From NCBI GenBank assembly GCA_038893355.1, contig JAWARQ010000006.1, positions 32,054 to 56,053 on the forward strand: 24,000 nucleotides of DNA. The letters are read 5' to 3'. This document shows, piece after piece, positions 9,341 to 23,375 of this stretch. The stretch comes from Sulfolobaceae archaeon. GTDB taxonomy: Archaea; Thermoproteota; Thermoprotei_A; Sulfolobales; Sulfolobaceae. The notes under the pieces are model-generated. The model saw only the letters and a program-made list of their open reading frames with translations, had not been told where the DNA came from and searched no databases. The translations under genes and the position numbers were made by a program. Position 1 is the first letter of the stretch. The number at the start of each line of letters is the position of its first letter.

Positions 9341-10324
9341 ATGGTTCCAATTATATTTTCTGATATTTATCTTTATCATAAACCGAGAGTAAATCATGTT
9401 GAAAATCCTACAAGATTAGTTAGAATTATTAAGAGTTTAGAACTTAAAGAAATTATTAAACCCAGTAAAGTAACGCTTAAGGATGTAGAGATAATACATG
9501 ATAAGGAATACATAGAGCTGGTTGAAGCATCTTCAAGATACGAAGAATGGCTAGATGATGACACCTATACTAATTCTTTCACGATAGAATCTGCACTTTA
9601 CGCTTTAGGTGGAACGCTCAAGGCTATGGAATTAAATGGATTTGCAATAGTAAGACCACCTGGTCATCATGCAGGGAAGAGTGGTAGAGCCCTTGGCGCT
9701 CCAACATTAGGTTTTTGTATATTTAATAATGTGGCTTTTGGTATTAAGAAATCTAGCGCTAAAAGAGCTGTAATAATAGACTTTGATGTTCATTACGGAA
9801 ATGGAACGCAAGAGATATTTTGGGACGATCCAAATGTAGTTCATATTGATATTCATCAAGATCCTATGACACTTTACCCTGGAACTGGTTTTCCAGAAAT
9901 GATTGGGGGTGAAGGTGCTGAGGGTACGAAGATTAATCTTATATTACCACCTTTAAGTTCTGATGACGTCTACCTAGAACTAATTCCTATAATCCAAGAA
10001 ATTATAGATGACTTTAAGCCAGATATAATTGCGTACTCTGCAGGATTTGATGCATTTGAAGGTGATGGACTAGCAGATATTATGGCAACAGAAGCTACTT
10101 ATTATCATTTAGGTTTAATCTCTAAAGGTTATAAAAGATTTGCAGTGTTAGAGGGTGGTTACAGTAGTGGGTTAGAAAGAGGAGTAAGGGCATTTATTGA
10201 TGGTCTTGATGGTCTTGATAAGGATTATAAACCTAAAAGTACTAAGGAAAGTGTAAAATCCATATTTAGAGAATATCTTAAAACCGAAAAGGATATCCTT
10301 AAAAAGTATTGGAAGATCACATAA
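9341..10324 (+). CDS. Histone deacetylase-family Zn amidohydrolase (AcuC / acetylpolyamine or protein-lysine deacetylase-like)
   Basis: 327 aa. Motifs: RPPGHHA, DFDVHYGNGTQ, SAGFDAFEGD, LEGGY. Confidence 0.85.
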   Translation: MVPIIFSDIYLYHKPRVNHVENPTRLVRIIKSLELKEIIKPSKVTLKDVEIIHDKEYIELVEASSRYEEWLDDDTYTNSFTIESALYALGGTLKAMELNGFAIVRPPGHHAGKSGRALGAPTLGFCIFNNVAFGIKKSSAKRAVIIDFDVHYGNGTQEIFWDDPNVVHIDIHQDPMTLYPGTGFPEMIGGEGAEGTKINLILPPLSSDDVYLELIPIIQEIIDDFKPDIIAYSAGFDAFEGDGLADIMATEATYYHLGLISKGYKRFAVLEGGYSSGLERGVRAFIDGLDGLDKDYKPKSTKESVKSIFREYLKTEKDILKKYWKIT

Positions 10325-10327
10325 TAG

Positions 10328-11185
10328 TTAGCAGGTATAATAACATTTTAGTGCAATATTGACAGAAGCGTTATAATCTCTATCAGCCTTCATTCCGCAT
10401 GATGGACAATAGAAGATTGAACCATAAACCTCACCATTCTTATAACCACAGTTTGAGCATATTTTAGAAGTAGCATATGCTTCAATTCTTTTATACTTTA
10501 TACCGCGGTAATATAGGCCCTTCTCTACTAAATTTTGAATAGACTTAAGTACCATTCCCCTTCTACCCTCAAATTCAGTTAGATCCTCTACTGCTACTAT
10601 CTTAGGATATAAACTTTCTATATAATTAATCACATCCTCAGCTATTTTTTGAATATATTTCCTTATTTTTTCTAGTTCTATAAAGGATTGTGGAGTTCCT
10701 ATAAATTTTGTTATATCTTCCGTAATTTCCTCTCCACTCCAAAATCTATACTTCCATACCTTTAAACCCTTTAATGCAACTACACTTACTATATTCCTTA
10801 TTCCAAAATCAATTCCAACAACGCTTTTCTCCCTCTCATATGCTAACAATACTTTTGTCCCCCTCTTTTTATCTATCTCGATAATTGCATATTTTGGTAT
10901 TCCAACTCTATTTGATTTTACTAATATATTTAATCTCTTTAACATATAAGGGTTATTTCCTTGAATATCAATTGGACCTATCTTTACCTTATCCTCCTCA
11001 ATGACTACTGGATACCCTTCTATATATGGGGGCCCTATTCCTCTTACTTTTTCATTTAATTTTTTAAGTGTGCTAATATAGTTTAGGTAATATAAGATAT
11101 CATTCTGAATCTTATCTAGCTTACCCTTTGAAATTATTACTGACTCATATAATTCATCTTCCATAACTGAAATCTCTTTGCTCAT
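10328..11185 (-). CDS. Miniature TnpB-like (IS200/IS605 OrfB / Cas12-related) RuvC + zinc-ribbon nuclease homologue
   Basis: 285 aa. RuvC-I VVGIDFGIRN (D126). RuvC-II IVAVEDL (E200). YATSKICSNCGY...YCPSCG is a CxxC...CxxC zinc ribbon. RuvC-III ADRDYNASVNIA. The ATG overlaps the upstream gene stop (ATGA). No TnpA is present in the window. Confidence 0.8.
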   Translation of the reverse strand: MSKEISVMEDELYESVIISKGKLDKIQNDILYYLNYISTLKKLNEKVRGIGPPYIEGYPVVIEEDKVKIGPIDIQGNNPYMLKRLNILVKSNRVGIPKYAIIEIDKKRGTKVLLAYEREKSVVGIDFGIRNIVSVVALKGLKVWKYRFWSGEEITEDITKFIGTPQSFIELEKIRKYIQKIAEDVINYIESLYPKIVAVEDLTEFEGRRGMVLKSIQNLVEKGLYYRGIKYKRIEAYATSKICSNCGYKNGEVYGSIFYCPSCGMKADRDYNASVNIALKCYYTC

Positions 11186-11886
11186 AAAGATAAAATTTCT
11201 CCTAATTCTAAACTTCTGGCTTCAATACCCAAGTAATACTTTAAGGTGGAAGAGAATACATATCCATTAACTTCATAGATTTTATAATACTCTTCTATAT
11301 CCCTTATTCTAAATTTATTATAATAGTGTGCGAAGTAGAGGTTCGGCTCATCATCCCAGAATACAAGAAGAGAGGAGTTTAAGCTAGTTGAGTATGGGCC
11401 TAGCCTATTGATTACTTGCTTATAACTTTCTAATACGTCAAAAGTATTAAGTAAGTCGATGATCTCCATAAACACTAAGTAACTATCAGTCCTTTGGAGT
11501 TCTTTATATTTAAATACATCCCTTTTCACAGAGCCATTATGGGCAAAAAATAATTCCTTATCCTTTAAACTATAATAGTAAGGGTGATTATGTAATACAC
11601 CCAATAAAAATTCTTTACTAGCCCTCCTAGCATGTATAATTCCAACTACTTCATCACCCTTAATTATGTCAAGGATCTCTACAAGACTTTCATCTTGATA
11701 AATGGGCAATGTGGATTTATGGTAAAGTATCCTCCATTTAGACCCTTTTTTAATGTAACAAACAATACCCCAACCATGTGGATGCATTCCGTATCTAGAA
11801 TAGATATCATTCTCTGCAGACTTTACCAGAGCACTAACAAAACTTCTATTAATTTCCTTACTCCTAAATGCAAGCAATCTACACAT
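11182..11886 (-). CDS. Class-II (Ntn) glutamine amidotransferase-like protein (YafJ/EgtC-type)
   Basis: 234 aa. It begins MC (Cys2 is the nucleophile after Met removal). Motifs: HPHGWG, IHARRAS, NHPY, FAHNGSV. It overlaps the upstream MBL gene by 8 nt. Confidence 0.8.
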   Translation of the reverse strand: MCRLLAFRSKEINRSFVSALVKSAENDIYSRYGMHPHGWGIVCYIKKGSKWRILYHKSTLPIYQDESLVEILDIIKGDEVVGIIHARRASKEFLLGVLHNHPYYYSLKDKELFFAHNGSVKRDVFKYKELQRTDSYLVFMEIIDLLNTFDVLESYKQVINRLGPYSTSLNSSLLVFWDDEPNLYFAHYYNKFRIRDIEEYYKIYEVNGYVFSSTLKYYLGIEARSLELGEILSL

Positions 11887-12576
11887 TTATAACTAATCCA
11901 TCTTCAGCTATCAAAAATTTATTTCTTGCACCTTCAATAATATCTTTCTCTATCTGAGAGGGAATATGTGTAAGTATAACTCTCTTTTCTGAAAATAACG
12001 AGATTAAATCCCTCAATGAAGAATGTCCCCATTTTCTACAATTATCTAGACAGCTACACTCATGAATAATTAGATCAGCATCTTTAGCTTCTTTTATAAT
12101 TTCCTCACAGGGTTCTGAAGTATCCCCAGAATATAATATTTTTCTATTCTTATCTAAAATTATGTATGATACTGCATAAATACTATGACATGATGGTATA
12201 GAATAAATATACAAATCATCCAGTTTAAGCTTTGGTAAATTATCTTCATAAATTATTGCCTCTACATTATTTCCTGCTCTAATATACGATTCTAAAATCT
12301 TAGAAAAGCCTACTGGAGAATGTACTTTAATTACCGGTAAATTGGAAAGTTTTCTTTGAACTAGATGATCGAAAATTCCATTAAAGTGATCAATATGAAG
12401 ATGTGTTATCATTATCGCTTCGAAGTTGTAGAGATTATAATCATCAATTCTCATATTTGCACCTGTTCCTAAATCTAATATTACTGAATTATTACCAGAA
12501 TTGATATAAATAGATGATTTAAACCTCTTAGTCCCCTTTGTAGATCCTGCACCAGTTCCCAGAAATATAATCTTCA
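11879..12576 (-). CDS. MBL-fold metallo-hydrolase (short RNase Z/PhnP-like phosphodiesterase type)
   Basis: Motifs: MKIIFLGTGAGS, DLGTG, ITHLHIDHFNG (HxHxDH), SGDT, HEC, GHSS. The track ORF starts at TTG 12589. I prefer ATG 12576 because a TATA-like ttttttaaat (minus strand, 12603-12612) lies 27-36 nt upstream of it. Confidence 0.8.
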
Positions 12577-12602
12577 TATTCTCGGTCAAATTTACTTACG
12601 AG

Positions 12603-12612
12603 ATTTAAAAAA
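12603..12612 (-). promoter_or_regulatory. TATA-like box for the MBL / amidotransferase / mini-TnpB operon
   Basis: The minus strand reads ttttttaaat, 27-36 nt upstream of ATG 12576. It sits in the 37-50-nt gap after the nitrilase stop. Confidence 0.4.
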
Positions 12613-14076: not shown

Positions 14077-15243
14077 ATGCTAGATATTATCATTATCTCA
14101 TTCGGTATTATTGCCTCGTCATGGAGTATATATAATTCAGTATTGGGAATTATAGGTGTTTTATGGAGGAAAAATTATGAAGAAAAGGAATTTAGTAGTG
14201 TTACTTTTTCTCTAATAATTCCCGCAAAGAATGAGGAGAAAGTCTTACCTAGATTACTGGATAGACTAGTTAATCAAGAGTATGATAAATCTAAATTGGA
14301 AATTATAGTAGTAGAAGATGGTTCTACAGATTCAACTCTTGAAATTTGTGAAAAGTATCGCAATAGGTACGATTTTATTAAATGTATTCACCTAGAGCCT
14401 GCAACGGTACCTAATGGTAAAAGTAGAGCATTAAACTACGCTTTAAAAATCTCAAGAGGTGATATTATAGGAATATTTGATGCGGATACAGTTCCTAAAC
14501 TGGATGATTTGGCTTATGTTGCGTCTAAATTTAAAGATGAAAGAGTTGCTGCGGTACAAGGTATGTTGTTACCAATTAATGTTAGAGAAAGTATTATTAG
14601 TAGGTTTGCTTCGATTGAGGAATTAATTTATGAATATTCAATTGCAGGTAGGGCTAGGTTAGGTTTTTTTATTCCTTTAGAGGGTACTCTAACTTTCATA
14701 AGAAAAGATGTGATAGAGAAATTGGGCGGCTTTAATGAATACTCACTTACTGAAGATTTAGATCTTAGCTTAAAATTAATTGCAAATGGTTATAAGATAG
14801 TATATTTACCCTCTGCAGTAGCCTGGAGAGAAGTCCCCATTAGCCTTAGATCTCTAATAAAGCAAAGGCTTAGATGGTATAGAGGTCATTTAGAGGTAAG
14901 AATAGGTAAAGTGAGATTAGATTGGAGAATAATTGATGGTGTATTAATTTTAGCCACGCCAATATTTATAGTTATGAATGTTGTGAATTATTCTATTGCA
15001 ATATTTTTCCCTAATTTCATAGTTATTGTTGCAGCGTTAATATCTGGAGTAGCGAGTATAATCTCCTTAGGCCTAGTTATTATAATTTCTAGACTTCATA
15101 TGATTGAATTTTTCTATTCTTTCCTAACCTTCTTTTATTTCAATTTAGTCTTAGGGTTAAATATGACTGCAATCTTTATGGAAATTATAAAGTATCCAAG
15201 GTTCTGGATAAAAACTGAAAGAAGTGGAGGGATAACTATTTGA
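14077..15243 (+). CDS. Membrane-embedded processive family-2 glycosyltransferase (cellulose/chitin/PNAG synthase-like)
   Basis: 388 aa. N-terminal TM helix. Motifs: IIPAKNEE, VEDGSTD, FDADT (DxD), TEDLDLS (TED), QRLRWYRG (QxxRW, the processive signature). Several C-terminal TM helices follow. Confidence 0.8.
   Translation: MLDIIIISFGIIASSWSIYNSVLGIIGVLWRKNYEEKEFSSVTFSLIIPAKNEEKVLPRLLDRLVNQEYDKSKLEIIVVEDGSTDSTLEICEKYRNRYDFIKCIHLEPATVPNGKSRALNYALKISRGDIIGIFDADTVPKLDDLAYVASKFKDERVAAVQGMLLPINVRESIISRFASIEELIYEYSIAGRARLGFFIPLEGTLTFIRKDVIEKLGGFNEYSLTEDLDLSLKLIANGYKIVYLPSAVAWREVPISLRSLIKQRLRWYRGHLEVRIGKVRLDWRIIDGVLILATPIFIVMNVVNYSIAIFFPNFIVIVAALISGVASIISLGLVIIISRLHMIEFFYSFLTFFYFNLVLGLNMTAIFMEIIKYPRFWIKTERSGGITI
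15226..15230 (+). promoter_or_regulatory. Shine-Dalgarno-like site for the operon-internal Cas4-like gene
   Basis: GGAGG sits inside the GT2 3' end, 9 nt upstream of TTG 15240. Confidence 0.4.
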
Positions 15244-15860
15244 TCGTTGAATTACTCTATAAAAAGAAGCTTGAGGAGTATTACTCTCATGAAAGGAAAG
15301 AGAATGTATTTTATGTTACGGATCTTACTAGATGTCCACTTAAAGTAAAATTTGAGCAAGAATATAGGGAACTAGCTCTCTCAGAAATCTTTACACCAGC
15401 AGGAATATTAGGTGATTTAGTACATAGAGGTATACAAAGCTCTCTTAATATCGAAGGTTATGAGGCTGAAGTAGAAGTAGAGAAAGAAAAAGGTCTAGAG
15501 ATTGAGGGCAAGAGTTATATTATAAAGGGTAGAGCGGATATCGTGCTAAAGAGTAAGACTAATAATGAGACTCTTATAATTGAAATTAAGACTGCTAGGA
15601 GGGATGATGGATTACCTCAAAAGCATCATATTTTACAATTAAGGTTATATCTTTGGTTATTTGAAGTTAATAAAGGAATTTTACTTTATGTAACACCAGA
15701 TAGGATAACTGAATATATAATTGAAGGTGCATTGGATACTGCGAGTGTAATGAGGTTAGTAGAGGAAAATATTAGACTGGCCCCTGCTCCAAGATATATC
15801 TGGGAGTGTTCCTATTGTATATTTGCAAAGCTATGCCCAAATAAAGCTAGCAATAGATAA
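15240..15860 (+). CDS. Stand-alone Cas4-family PD-(D/E)XK nuclease with a 4-Cys Fe-S cluster motif
   Basis: 206 aa. N-terminal Cys in VTDLTRCPLK. Motifs: GRADIV (D), IIEIKT (ExK), QLRLYLW (QxxxY). C-terminal CSYCIFAKLC (CxxCx5C). The TTG start overlaps the GT2 stop (TTGA), and GGAGG lies 9 nt upstream. Confidence 0.8.
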   Translation: MIVELLYKKKLEEYYSHERKENVFYVTDLTRCPLKVKFEQEYRELALSEIFTPAGILGDLVHRGIQSSLNIEGYEAEVEVEKEKGLEIEGKSYIIKGRADIVLKSKTNNETLIIEIKTARRDDGLPQKHHILQLRLYLWLFEVNKGILLYVTPDRITEYIIEGALDTASVMRLVEENIRLAPAPRYIWECSYCIFAKLCPNKASNR

Positions 15861-21327: not shown

Positions 21328-22329
21328 ATGATAGTATCTACGATAGGAAGTCACTCATCTCTACAAATTTTGCATGGTGCTAAGAAAGAGGGATTTGAAA
21401 CTGCAGTAATTACTGAATCTAAAAGATTAAATTTTTATAAGCAATTTTGGTTTATAGACAAAATTTTAACTTTTGAAAGCTTAGATCAAGCAGTTTCGAA
21501 TATTAATCTATTACATGATTCGGTCTTTATCCCACACGGTAGTTTAGTCGAGTACCTAGGAATGGATAGAGTAAGGAAGATTAATGTAAGAATATTTGGT
21601 AATAAGAACATCTTCGAGTGGGAGTCAAATCAGTATAAGAAGATGGAGTTATTAAAAAGGTCAGGGATAAAAATTCCTACTCATTTTGAGTCTGTAGAAG
21701 ATGTAGATAGAATGGTTATAGTAAAATTACATGGCGCAAAGGGTGGAAGGGGTTATTTCGTTGCAAGGAATAAAGCAGAACTAAAAAATGGTTTAAAAGA
21801 ATTAATTGAAAAGAAATTAATTAATGATATAAATGATGTTATAATTCAAGAGTACATAATAGGAGTTCCAATGTATTTTCAGTTCTTTTACAGCCCACTA
21901 CTTAATAGAAATGAGATAATGGGAATAGATATCAGATATGAAACTAATATTGATGGATTAAGAAGGATCCCTTTTAATAGTATTAGTGTAAAGCCAACAT
22001 TTGTTGTAGTCGGAAATATTCCTGCAGTTGCAAGGGAAAGTTTGTTACCCAAAGTTTATGAGTACGCAGAAAATTTTGTGAAAACAACTAAAGAGCTTGT
22101 GCCTCCAGGGATGATTGGACCTTACTGTTTAGAGTCTATAGTTACTGACGAGCAGGAAATAGTAGTTTTTGAATTTTCTGGTAGAATCGTAGCAGGGACT
22201 AACTTATATACAAACGGAAGCCCATATAGCTGGTTCTACTGGGACGAACCAATGAGTATGGGTAAAAGAATTGCAAGAGAAGTTAAATTAGCAATAAGTA
22301 AAAATAGACTTAATGAGGTAACTACATAA
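21328..22329 (+). CDS. purP: 5-formaminoimidazole-4-carboxamide ribonucleotide (FAICAR) synthetase, ATP-grasp PurP
   Basis: 333 aa. Archaeal PurP layout: [16 protein letters not shown] at the N-terminus, the Gly-rich loop [10 protein letters not shown], and IQEYIIG. Confidence 0.85.
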
Positions 22330-23375
22330 TGAATAAGATTGCATGTTTGGCTAGTCATTCAGCACTAGACGTTTTCGATGGTGCAAAGGACGAAGGATTT
22401 AGAACAATAGCATTAGCTAAAAAAGGGAGAGAAAGACCTTATCTGGAATTTAAAAGAATAGTAGATGATATAATAATTTTGAATGATTTTAAAGAGATAG
22501 CATCTGAAGAAGTTCAAGAGAAGTTAGTTAAAGAAAATGCAATATTAGTCCCTAATAGAAGTTTGGCAGTATATCTAGGTTATGATAATATAGAGAGAAT
22601 GAGAGTAAAATTCTTCGGGAACAAATTTATGTTAAGATGGGAAGAGAGAATTGGTGAAAAGAATTATTATAAATTACTTGATGAAGCTAAGATTAATAGG
22701 CCAAGGAATTATAAGATTAACGAAGTTGATGGTCCAGTTATAGTAAAAATGCCAGAGGCTAAGAGAAGAATAGAGAGAGGTTTCTTTTTTGCTATAAATA
22801 GGGAAGATTTAGAATCTAAAATTTCTAGGCTAATAAAGCAAGGTATAATAGATGAGGAATCATTAAAGAGTATGATCATAGAAGAATTCATTTTTGGTGC
22901 ACATTTTAACGTCAATTACTTTAATAGTATAGTAGAGAATAGAGTAGAGATAATAAGCATAGATAGAAGAATTCAAAGTGATTGGGATTCTCTATATAGA
23001 TTGCCTGCAGAAATCCAAATAAAGCTAAATAGGACTCCAAGATTAATAGAAGTTGGTCATGAACCGGCGACGATCAGGGAAAGTTTGCTCGAAAAATTGT
23101 TTGAAATCGGTTATTCTTTCGTAGAGGCAACTAGAAAACTAGAACCACCTGGCATAATTGGACCTTTTACACTACAACTAATGGTAACACCAGATCTTGA
23201 TGTAGTAGTTTATGATGTAGCACCTAGGATAGGGGGAGGTACAAACGCCCATATGGGAATCGGTGGTAATTACTCTAAGCTTTACTTCGGTTACCCAGTG
23301 AGTATGGGAAGAAGGATTGCAATTGAAATAAAAAGAGCAATAAATAATGGAATGTTAGATAAAATCCTAACTTAA
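22329..23375 (+). CDS. purP: PurP-family paralogue (FAICAR synthetase-like ATP-grasp protein)
   Basis: 348 aa, colinear with the upstream PurP ([29 protein letters not shown]). The Gly-rich loop is replaced by [13 protein letters not shown]. The ATG shares 1 nt with the upstream stop (TAATG). Confidence 0.75.

Follow-up and report, generated by a model that had tools for sequence, protein, structure and literature searches.

A 24,000-nucleotide stretch of DNA from an uncultured Sulfolobaceae archaeon (assembly GCA_038893355.1, contig JAWARQ010000006.1, positions 32,054 to 56,053 of the forward strand; hereafter the window, whose numbering is used throughout) encodes a small protein related to the TnpB and Cas12 nucleases, here called mini-TnpB. 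In the list of open reading frames (ORFs) its gene occupies 10328..11185 on the reverse strand and specifies 285 residues and a stop codon from the first ATG, or 278 residues from the second, and its product is 100% identical to a protein deposited from a Sulfolobaceae metagenome-assembled genome under the name 'zinc ribbon domain-containing protein [Sulfolobaceae archaeon]'. The product may be the 278-residue form, because most orthologues start at the position aligned with M8 (ATG 11162-11164, reverse strand; probably the orthologous start) and residues 1-7 have a predicted local distance difference test score (pLDDT) below 50 in the AlphaFold2 model described below.

An earlier reading of the locus, made from the sequence alone, had described a TnpB-like ORF of 285 residues with an apparently intact RuvC catalytic triad, and direct inspection of the codons places every motif that it quoted at the residue given. 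The segment containing RuvC-I and RuvC-II (residues 120-236; 10478..10828, reverse strand), delimited by hhalign comparison with typical TnpBs, carries Asp126 in the motif GIDFG (codon 10808-10810) and Glu200 in AVEDL (codon 10586-10588). The zinc ribbon of the TNB domain (Pfam PF07282) follows at residues 237-267 (10385..10477, reverse strand), with a CxxC...CxxC pattern formed by Cys243 (codon 10457-10459), Cys246 (10448-10450), Cys260 (10406-10408) and Cys263 (10397-10399). The RuvC-III helix (residues 268-285; 10331..10384, reverse strand) contains the sequence ADRDYNAS, with Asp268 and the catalytic Asp270 (codon 10376-10378). When 28 orthologous sequences were aligned, Asp126, Glu200, Asp270 and the four zinc-ribbon cysteines proved invariant, which bears out the intact triad, and so did Arg130, Arg269, Asn272 and Asn276, among orthologues about 40% identical to one another; Asp268, Cys281 and Cys285 are conserved in at least 90% of the sequences. 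The last two belong to a near-invariant C-terminal end, KCYYTC, in which these additional cysteines lie one helical turn apart (residues 281-285, 10331-10345); they might form a disulfide or contact a metal or a partner, and the pair is missing solely from the divergent HS-7 protein.

Relationship to TnpB and Cas12

Homology of mini-TnpB to the TnpB/Cas12 superfamily is unambiguous and far above chance. The Cas12f1-like TNB domain of Pfam (PF07282) is matched with an E-value of 9.6e-16, above the curated cut-off, and the NCBIfam model guided_TnpB with 5.5e-15, a value that falls short of the model's full-length cut-off, as it should for a protein of this size. A phmmer search of the PDB matched Cas12f, TnpB and Fanzor2 chains, the best at 1e-9, solely in the C-terminal 100 or so residues. 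A profile of the family was compared by hhalign with a profile of 18 ordinary TnpBs of 350-400 residues, and the two align over residues 116-279 with a probability of 99.9 and an E-value of 3.6e-34; in this comparison the RuvC half lacks about 25 residues relative to typical TnpBs. The AlphaFold2 model of the full protein, built on 21 orthologues, has a pLDDT of 84.6. Its best Foldseek matches are to Cas12f (TM-scores 0.43-0.45; AsCas12f, 8j12_A, with an E-value of 3.5e-12); Fanzor2 and ISFba1 TnpB are also matched, as are, more distantly, bacterial RuvC resolvases. Mini-TnpB thus has the features that define the superfamily, a split RuvC fold with the D...E...D triad and a TNB zinc ribbon between RuvC-II and RuvC-III, and the membership proposed from the sequence alone stands after both the profile searches and the structural comparison.

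The N-terminal half is where mini-TnpB departs from its relatives. Residues 9-119 (10829..11161, reverse strand) form a beta-rich domain that is presumed to derive from the WED domain of TnpB. In the AlphaFold2 model two strands (residues 10-14 and 16-19) are followed by a helix (23-42), a loop and six strands between residues 60 and 117, after which come the RuvC fold (121-234), the zinc ribbon (240-268) and a C-terminal helix (269-284). The domain gives a pLDDT of 88.5 when modelled alone. Conservation between genera extends over the first 115 residues, where Gly70, Pro71, Ala100 and Leu114 are invariant in the 28 sequences. These 115 residues correspond in position to 176 columns of the typical-TnpB profile. 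Profile-profile comparison by hhalign detected no similarity between them and TnpB N-termini, and a Foldseek search with the isolated domain returned nothing at E <= 1e-3; the top query-normalised TM-scores were 0.40 for ISDra2 TnpB (8h1j_A) and 0.36 for AsCas12f. In canonical TnpBs a helical REC domain, which accommodates the guide-target duplex, interrupts the WED domain; in mini-TnpB a single helix, residues 23-42, is predicted where REC would sit. The modelled layout is that of a TnpB with REC shrunk to one helix, in agreement with the drastic reduction of the N-terminal half that had been proposed from the sequence alone; the accompanying statement that the N-terminal beta-strand opening is missing finds no support in the model, which has two conserved strands within residues 10-19.

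Mini-TnpB is a genuine and complete TnpB derivative that is maintained by selection. A word-indexed search recovered 23 clusters of proteins of 272-285 residues, with 40-74% identity, from Sulfolobaceae; the relatives come from Saccharolobus, Sulfurisphaera, Stygiolobus, Acidianus, Metallosphaera and Sulfuracidifex, and all are of this length. In an exhaustive HMMER scan of 1.84 billion representative sequences only seven relatives scored at E <= 1e-30, and the next matches were ordinary TnpBs at 2e-10; the short matches just past this gap (P0032 and P0035) are contig-truncated pieces of proteins of 357 and 397 residues. The ratio of nonsynonymous to synonymous substitution rates (dN/dS) is 0.09, with a dS of 0.49, between S. 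solfataricus and S. islandicus, and 0.04-0.16 in the seven pairs with at least 60% amino-acid identity and an estimable dS; dS exceeds 1.4 in most orthologue pairs. Longer near-identical copies and an upstream remnant of a lost N-terminus, the signs of truncation named by the sequence-only reading, were sought and neither was found. In one Sulfolobales contig from a metagenome-assembled genome a run of Ns inside mini-TnpB (L017:5409-5455) splits the tblastn match, and this is an assembly gap with no frameshift.

Genomic setting and inheritance

Mini-TnpB is the third of three overlapping genes on the reverse strand. Directly upstream, at 11182..11886, lies a gene for a class-II glutamine amidotransferase (GATase) of the N-terminal nucleophile (Ntn) type, resembling YafJ and EgtC (Pfam GATase_4, E-value 8e-8), whose product begins Met-Cys; its stop codon overlaps the ATG of mini-TnpB by 4 nucleotides (ATGA). 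This gene is in turn overlapped by 8 nucleotides by the first gene of the presumed operon, at 11879..12589, which encodes a metallo-beta-lactamase (MBL)-fold phosphodiesterase of 236 residues (Pfam Lactamase_B_2) with sequence matches in the PDB to ELAC2, RNase Z and Apyc1. The true start of the MBL gene is probably the ATG at 12575-12577 and not the TTG at 12587-12589. A TATA-like box, TTTTTTAAA, read from the sequence at 12604..12612 on the reverse strand, is centred about 31 nucleotides before that ATG and is a candidate archaeal promoter for the three genes. The arrangement suggests that the three genes are transcribed together and that the first has almost no leader, and co-expression of mini-TnpB with the MBL-GATase pair is possible. 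On the other side, a convergent gene of the histone-deacetylase family (9341..10324, forward strand) ends 3 nucleotides from the mini-TnpB stop codon, and the two genes abut in this way at most orthologous loci.

The gene order MBL, GATase_4 and mini-TnpB, usually followed by the convergent deacetylase gene and a gene for an M24 peptidase, is shared by S. tokodaii, S. solfataricus, S. islandicus, S. caldissimus, Stygiolobus, Acidianus, Metallosphaera, Ca. Aramenus, Sulfuracidifex-like genomes and several uncultured lineages, at least 16 genomes being syntenic, and the GATase gene adjoins mini-TnpB at 16 of the 18 orthologous loci checked. Wherever copy number was checked mini-TnpB is single-copy; the complete HS-7 genome has one copy of the family along with unrelated ordinary TnpBs. 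Pairwise identities of mini-TnpB between genomes track those of the flanking genes (Pearson correlation 0.74-0.85) about as those of the flanking genes track one another (0.68-0.80). No transposase gene and no insertion sequence (IS) ends were found in the window, whose genes are all housekeeping genes for cobalamin and purine functions, thiamine-type kinases, glycosyltransferases and the like. Canonical TnpBs belong to IS200/IS605 or IS607 elements, with a TnpA transposase, left and right element ends and mobility in multiple copies, and none of these attributes is seen here. IMG/VR contains no member of the family among its viral sequences, and a viral origin was rejected on that ground. Mini-TnpB is an immobile, vertically inherited host gene.

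Several loci carry an additional orphan ORF of 87-89 residues between the GATase and mini-TnpB genes (L006:4711-4977, L009:4671-4934, L010:4718-4978, L012:2140-2397, L016:725-985 and L017:4711-4977). It occurs in Acidianus, Sulfuracidifex, Ca. Aramenus and some uncultured Sulfolobales and has the conserved motifs NSVKEV and EG(Y/L)P; it has no match in Pfam, NCBIfam or the PDB and is absent from the window and from Saccharolobus, Sulfurisphaera and Stygiolobus. It was considered as a universal partner of mini-TnpB and rejected, being limited to Acidianus, Sulfuracidifex, Aramenus and uncultured relatives. Elsewhere in the window a stand-alone gene for a Cas4-like PD-(D/E)xK nuclease (15240-15860, forward strand) overlaps the end of a glycosyltransferase gene; it belongs to the same conserved neighbourhood in several genera (also L001:1737-2357 and L003:1750-2358), and no CRISPR context is visible around it in the window. 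Two tandem paralogous DUF1246/DUF1297 genes, which we take to be ATP-grasp genes of the PurP type, lie beside adenylosuccinate lyase at 21328-23375, a setting of ordinary purine metabolism.

Search for a guide RNA

In canonical TnpB loci the sequence for the guide, an omega-RNA (also reRNA), takes in the 3' end of the gene and runs on past it. No such arrangement was found for mini-TnpB, which in the window has no flanking non-coding DNA, given the 4-nucleotide overlap at its 5' end and the 3 nucleotides that separate it from the convergent deacetylase stop. Rfam gave no credible match at the locus. The 3'-terminal 231 nucleotides, which take in some downstream sequence, have no more stable a fold than dinucleotide-shuffled controls (z = +0.47). 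What follows the stop codon differs by lineage, being the deacetylase gene, an M24 peptidase gene, a proteasome subunit gene or an insertion of 537 nucleotides, so that no fixed guide is conserved there.

An omega-RNA embedded in the coding sequence (CDS) would be expected to hold back synonymous change, and this was assessed by codon identity at conserved amino acids in 19 codon-aligned orthologous CDSs, with the expectation taken from the codon usage of the family. No synonymous constraint was detected: the ratio of observed to expected identity stayed within 0.91-1.10 whichever 15-codon window was taken, and the final 30 codons gave 1.02-1.03. A sliding count of synonymous differences in four closer pairs, three of which share S. 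solfataricus while the fourth compares the window with L084, found as many at the 3' end as in the rest of the gene. All four pairs show fewer synonymous differences at codons ~141-190 (window ~10616-10765) than elsewhere in the gene; this dip is probably noise, as it is not seen in the 19-sequence alignment. A CDS-embedded omega-RNA was rejected on the combined results from Rfam, folding, codon identity in the 19 CDSs and synonymous differences in the four pairs. There is no sign that mini-TnpB has an omega-RNA of its own.

Two further observations were made in the course of this search. A fluoride-riboswitch model of Rfam matches 9899-9979 (forward strand) inside the deacetylase CDS with 17.8 bits against a gathering threshold of 34 and an E-value of 0.24, almost certainly by chance. 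The insertion of ~537 nucleotides, found in Saccharolobus caldissimus (L087:4850-5385), is a GC-richer non-coding segment between the convergent stop codons of mini-TnpB and the deacetylase gene; it has no Rfam match and might be a miniature inverted-repeat transposable element or another mobile or structured element.

Possible functions and relation to known systems

A family with these properties has been described by Altae-Tran et al. (PNAS 2023; PMC10691335) under the name 'GATase-TnpB': proteins of ~280 residues in Sulfolobaceae, encoded beside a glutamine amidotransferase gene, that comprise only a wedge domain and a catalytically active RuvC domain, with too little room downstream for an RNA gene. 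Those authors regarded guide binding as uncertain, raised the possibility of an RNA-independent nuclease and left open an omega-RNA that overlaps the CDS. The window gene agrees with this clade in its host, its length of ~280 residues, its GATase neighbour, its predicted active RuvC site and the lack of downstream room for an RNA. Mini-TnpB is an additional member of a published family whose bioinformatic description is already in the literature, and the novelty that the sequence-only reading implied is withdrawn, since both the clade and its interpretation as an exapted nuclease are in that paper (PMC10691335). Our literature search found no other paper that uses the term GATase-TnpB or that combines TnpB, glutamine amidotransferase and Sulfolobaceae; the genome-editing papers on S. 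islandicus TnpB concern ordinary IS605 TnpBs. What is added here is negative evidence on a CDS-embedded omega-RNA, the finding that linkage to GATase is dispensable in both directions, the result that the N-terminal domain is not demonstrably a WED domain by sequence or by Foldseek statistics, the ambiguity of the start codon, and the lineage-specific small ORF.

We consider it reasonably likely that mini-TnpB is an exapted metal-dependent nuclease of the GATase-TnpB clade that works without a guide RNA encoded in cis. A tnpB gene of the IS200/IS605 type would have lost its mobility in a Sulfolobaceae ancestor and then been inherited vertically in single copy, losing its REC lobe save for one helix, and also its own omega-RNA, but retaining the complete RuvC site (D126/E200/D270) and the zinc-ribbon TNB domain. 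The product, predicted to be a two-metal, RuvC-type endonuclease dependent on divalent metal, is most likely catalytically active and most likely guide-independent, and it would most likely recognise its substrate unaided by a cis-encoded guide, using its N-terminal beta domain and zinc ribbon and perhaps partner proteins. Its role would lie in a nucleic-acid transaction of the host and not in transposon maintenance. As the last gene of the packed MBL-GATase unit, it is probably co-transcribed and translationally coupled. The sequence-only reading had offered two alternatives, a new minimal guided architecture and an exapted nuclease that has given up its guide; the second is the better fit to a gene that is immobile, single-copy, syntenic, vertically inherited and devoid of both room for an omega-RNA and any signature of one, and the first fits less well.

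Several points weigh against this interpretation. Our literature search found no experimental study of any GATase-TnpB member. Synonymous sites are saturated between genera, and the constraint test can miss an RNA conserved in structure alone; an RNA of that kind, or a guide supplied in trans, is possible. The WED assignment of the N-terminal domain has no statistical support from profile comparison or Foldseek. The essential-gene lists of S. islandicus contain no entry for OrfB, IS605, COG0675, mobilome or transposase, and the lack of these annotation terms hints that the orthologue there (ACR42717.1 in M.16.4) is probably dispensable in culture. In HS-7 (L014) and on contig L007 mini-TnpB lies in unrelated housekeeping surroundings, apart from the MBL-GATase pair; in Sulfodiicoccus acidiphilus the pair is present and mini-TnpB is missing from that locus. 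These last cases weaken an obligatory functional link to GATase and MBL, and because the link is not obligatory, membership of the operon may say little about function. The association looks as if mini-TnpB had been inserted long ago behind the last gene of an operon that already existed, and had stayed there, the linkage being at least partly historical. In S. acidiphilus (L088, AP018553.1; 4177-6624) an alpha/beta-hydrolase gene stands at the mini-TnpB position, while the wider synteny of glycosyltransferase, kinase, MBL and GATase genes is retained; this arrangement may help to date domestication relative to the Sulfodiicoccus split.

The rival that survives best, although we judge it unlikely, is a minimal RNA-guided nuclease of ~280 residues, perhaps a dimer in the manner of Cas12f, with a guide that is either embedded in a coding region or supplied in trans, for example by the omega-RNAs of resident IS200/IS605 elements, CRISPR RNAs or other small RNAs. 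The RuvC/TNB core is intact, and the beta-rich domain sits at the position of WED, which in TnpB binds the omega-RNA scaffold; Cas12f dimers are the best full-length structural matches, active TnpB/omega-RNA elements are numerous in Sulfolobales (PMC11043419, PMC10691335), and according to the published description an omega-RNA can overlap the CDS (PMC10691335). Mini-TnpB nevertheless has no REC lobe to cradle a guide-target duplex and no flanking non-coding DNA, its 3' coding end shows neither synonymous constraint nor a stable fold nor an Rfam match, and the sequence beyond it changes between lineages from the deacetylase gene to that of an M24 peptidase or a proteasome subunit. The more specific proposal of a functional, perhaps dimeric enzyme that works without REC on a guide in trans, taken from resident IS200/IS605 omega-RNAs or cellular small RNAs, is improbable. 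If this is true, mini-TnpB would have the smallest core of any programmable nuclease known and would act as a host 'police' enzyme that uses transposon RNAs.

We also think it doubtful, slightly more so than the guided nuclease, that mini-TnpB acts as effector in a module of three genes for stress response, defence or toxicity, its nuclease activity being controlled by a small-molecule or nucleotide signal that the MBL protein and the amidotransferase make or degrade. Such a module would accord with the packed and overlapping genes of the window and with the resemblance of the MBL protein to RNase Z and to the cyclic-nucleotide phosphodiesterase Apyc1, and toxin roles have been suggested for some other active exapted TnpBs (PMC10691335). 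Unlike patchy defence islands, though, the family is widespread in Sulfolobaceae genera, single-copy where checked and vertically inherited, and its neighbours are thiamine/pyridoxal-type kinases and other metabolic enzymes. PADLOC returned generic Cas12-like matches for mini-TnpB, none for the GATase and a marginal one (E-value 0.0015) for the MBL protein, and the separation of the pair from mini-TnpB in Sulfodiicoccus, HS-7 and L007 is hard to accommodate in a module.

A little less likely again is a non-cleaving nucleic-acid-binding regulator or structural factor, comparable with TldR or Cas12k, in which the triad is kept because binding or stability depends on metal. A regulatory role is the usual one among the TnpB exaptations that are well understood (PMC10705468, PMC10691335), but the known regulatory derivatives have lost RuvC residues and retain an omega-RNA; in mini-TnpB, D126, E200, D270, R130, R269, N272 and N276 are all invariant across orthologues of ~40% identity, and no omega-RNA is evident. 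Finally, a 5'-truncated pseudogene of an ordinary TnpB of ~400 residues, to which the shortness of the protein and the restriction of TnpB similarity to its C-terminal 165 residues could point, is refuted by an N-terminus that is conserved across genera and confidently folded, a dN/dS of about 0.1, orthologues that are all 272-285 residues long, and a conserved amidotransferase CDS directly upstream that leaves no space for a lost N-terminus.

The host lineage has kept a TnpB core across many genera under strong purifying selection, with an intact site and without REC, an omega-RNA of its own or mobility. If mini-TnpB is guide-independent, it shows an RNA-guided nuclease reverting to a protein-directed one and reveals, in a model group of archaea, a host nuclease not yet characterised; should it still depend on RNA, it would set the lower size limit of programmable nucleases.

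With the canonical IS200/IS605 TnpBs, such as ISDra2 TnpB (408 residues) and SisTnpB of S. islandicus, mini-TnpB shares the RuvC D-E-D triad and the TNB zinc ribbon. It differs from them in being ~120 residues shorter, in having REC reduced to one helix and an N-terminus unrecognisable by sequence, and in its single-copy, syntenic occurrence without omega-RNA, IS ends or TnpA. Cas12f/Cas14 proteins provide the best structural matches to the whole model (8j12_A), but they have 400-700 residues and a REC domain, the TM-score is 0.43-0.45, and neither a CRISPR array nor a tracrRNA lies near mini-TnpB. TldR and other inactivated exapted TnpBs are likewise immobilised derivatives that have taken on host functions (PMC10705468); TldR, however, has lost the RuvC residues and is accompanied by an adjacent omega-RNA with a fixed guide, whereas in mini-TnpB the triad is invariant and no RNA is adjacent. 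The RuvC-only TnpBs of ~220 residues from halobacteria (PMC10691335) are also non-mobile, very short and apparently active, and guide binding has been judged unlikely for them; they lack an N-terminal domain, whereas mini-TnpB keeps a conserved beta-rich domain of 110 residues. From the GATase-TnpB clade itself there is no difference in kind: the window adds to it a further member, carried by an uncultured Sulfolobaceae archaeon and packed as tightly as possible, overlapping the GATase gene by 4 nucleotides and lying 3 nucleotides from the convergent gene.

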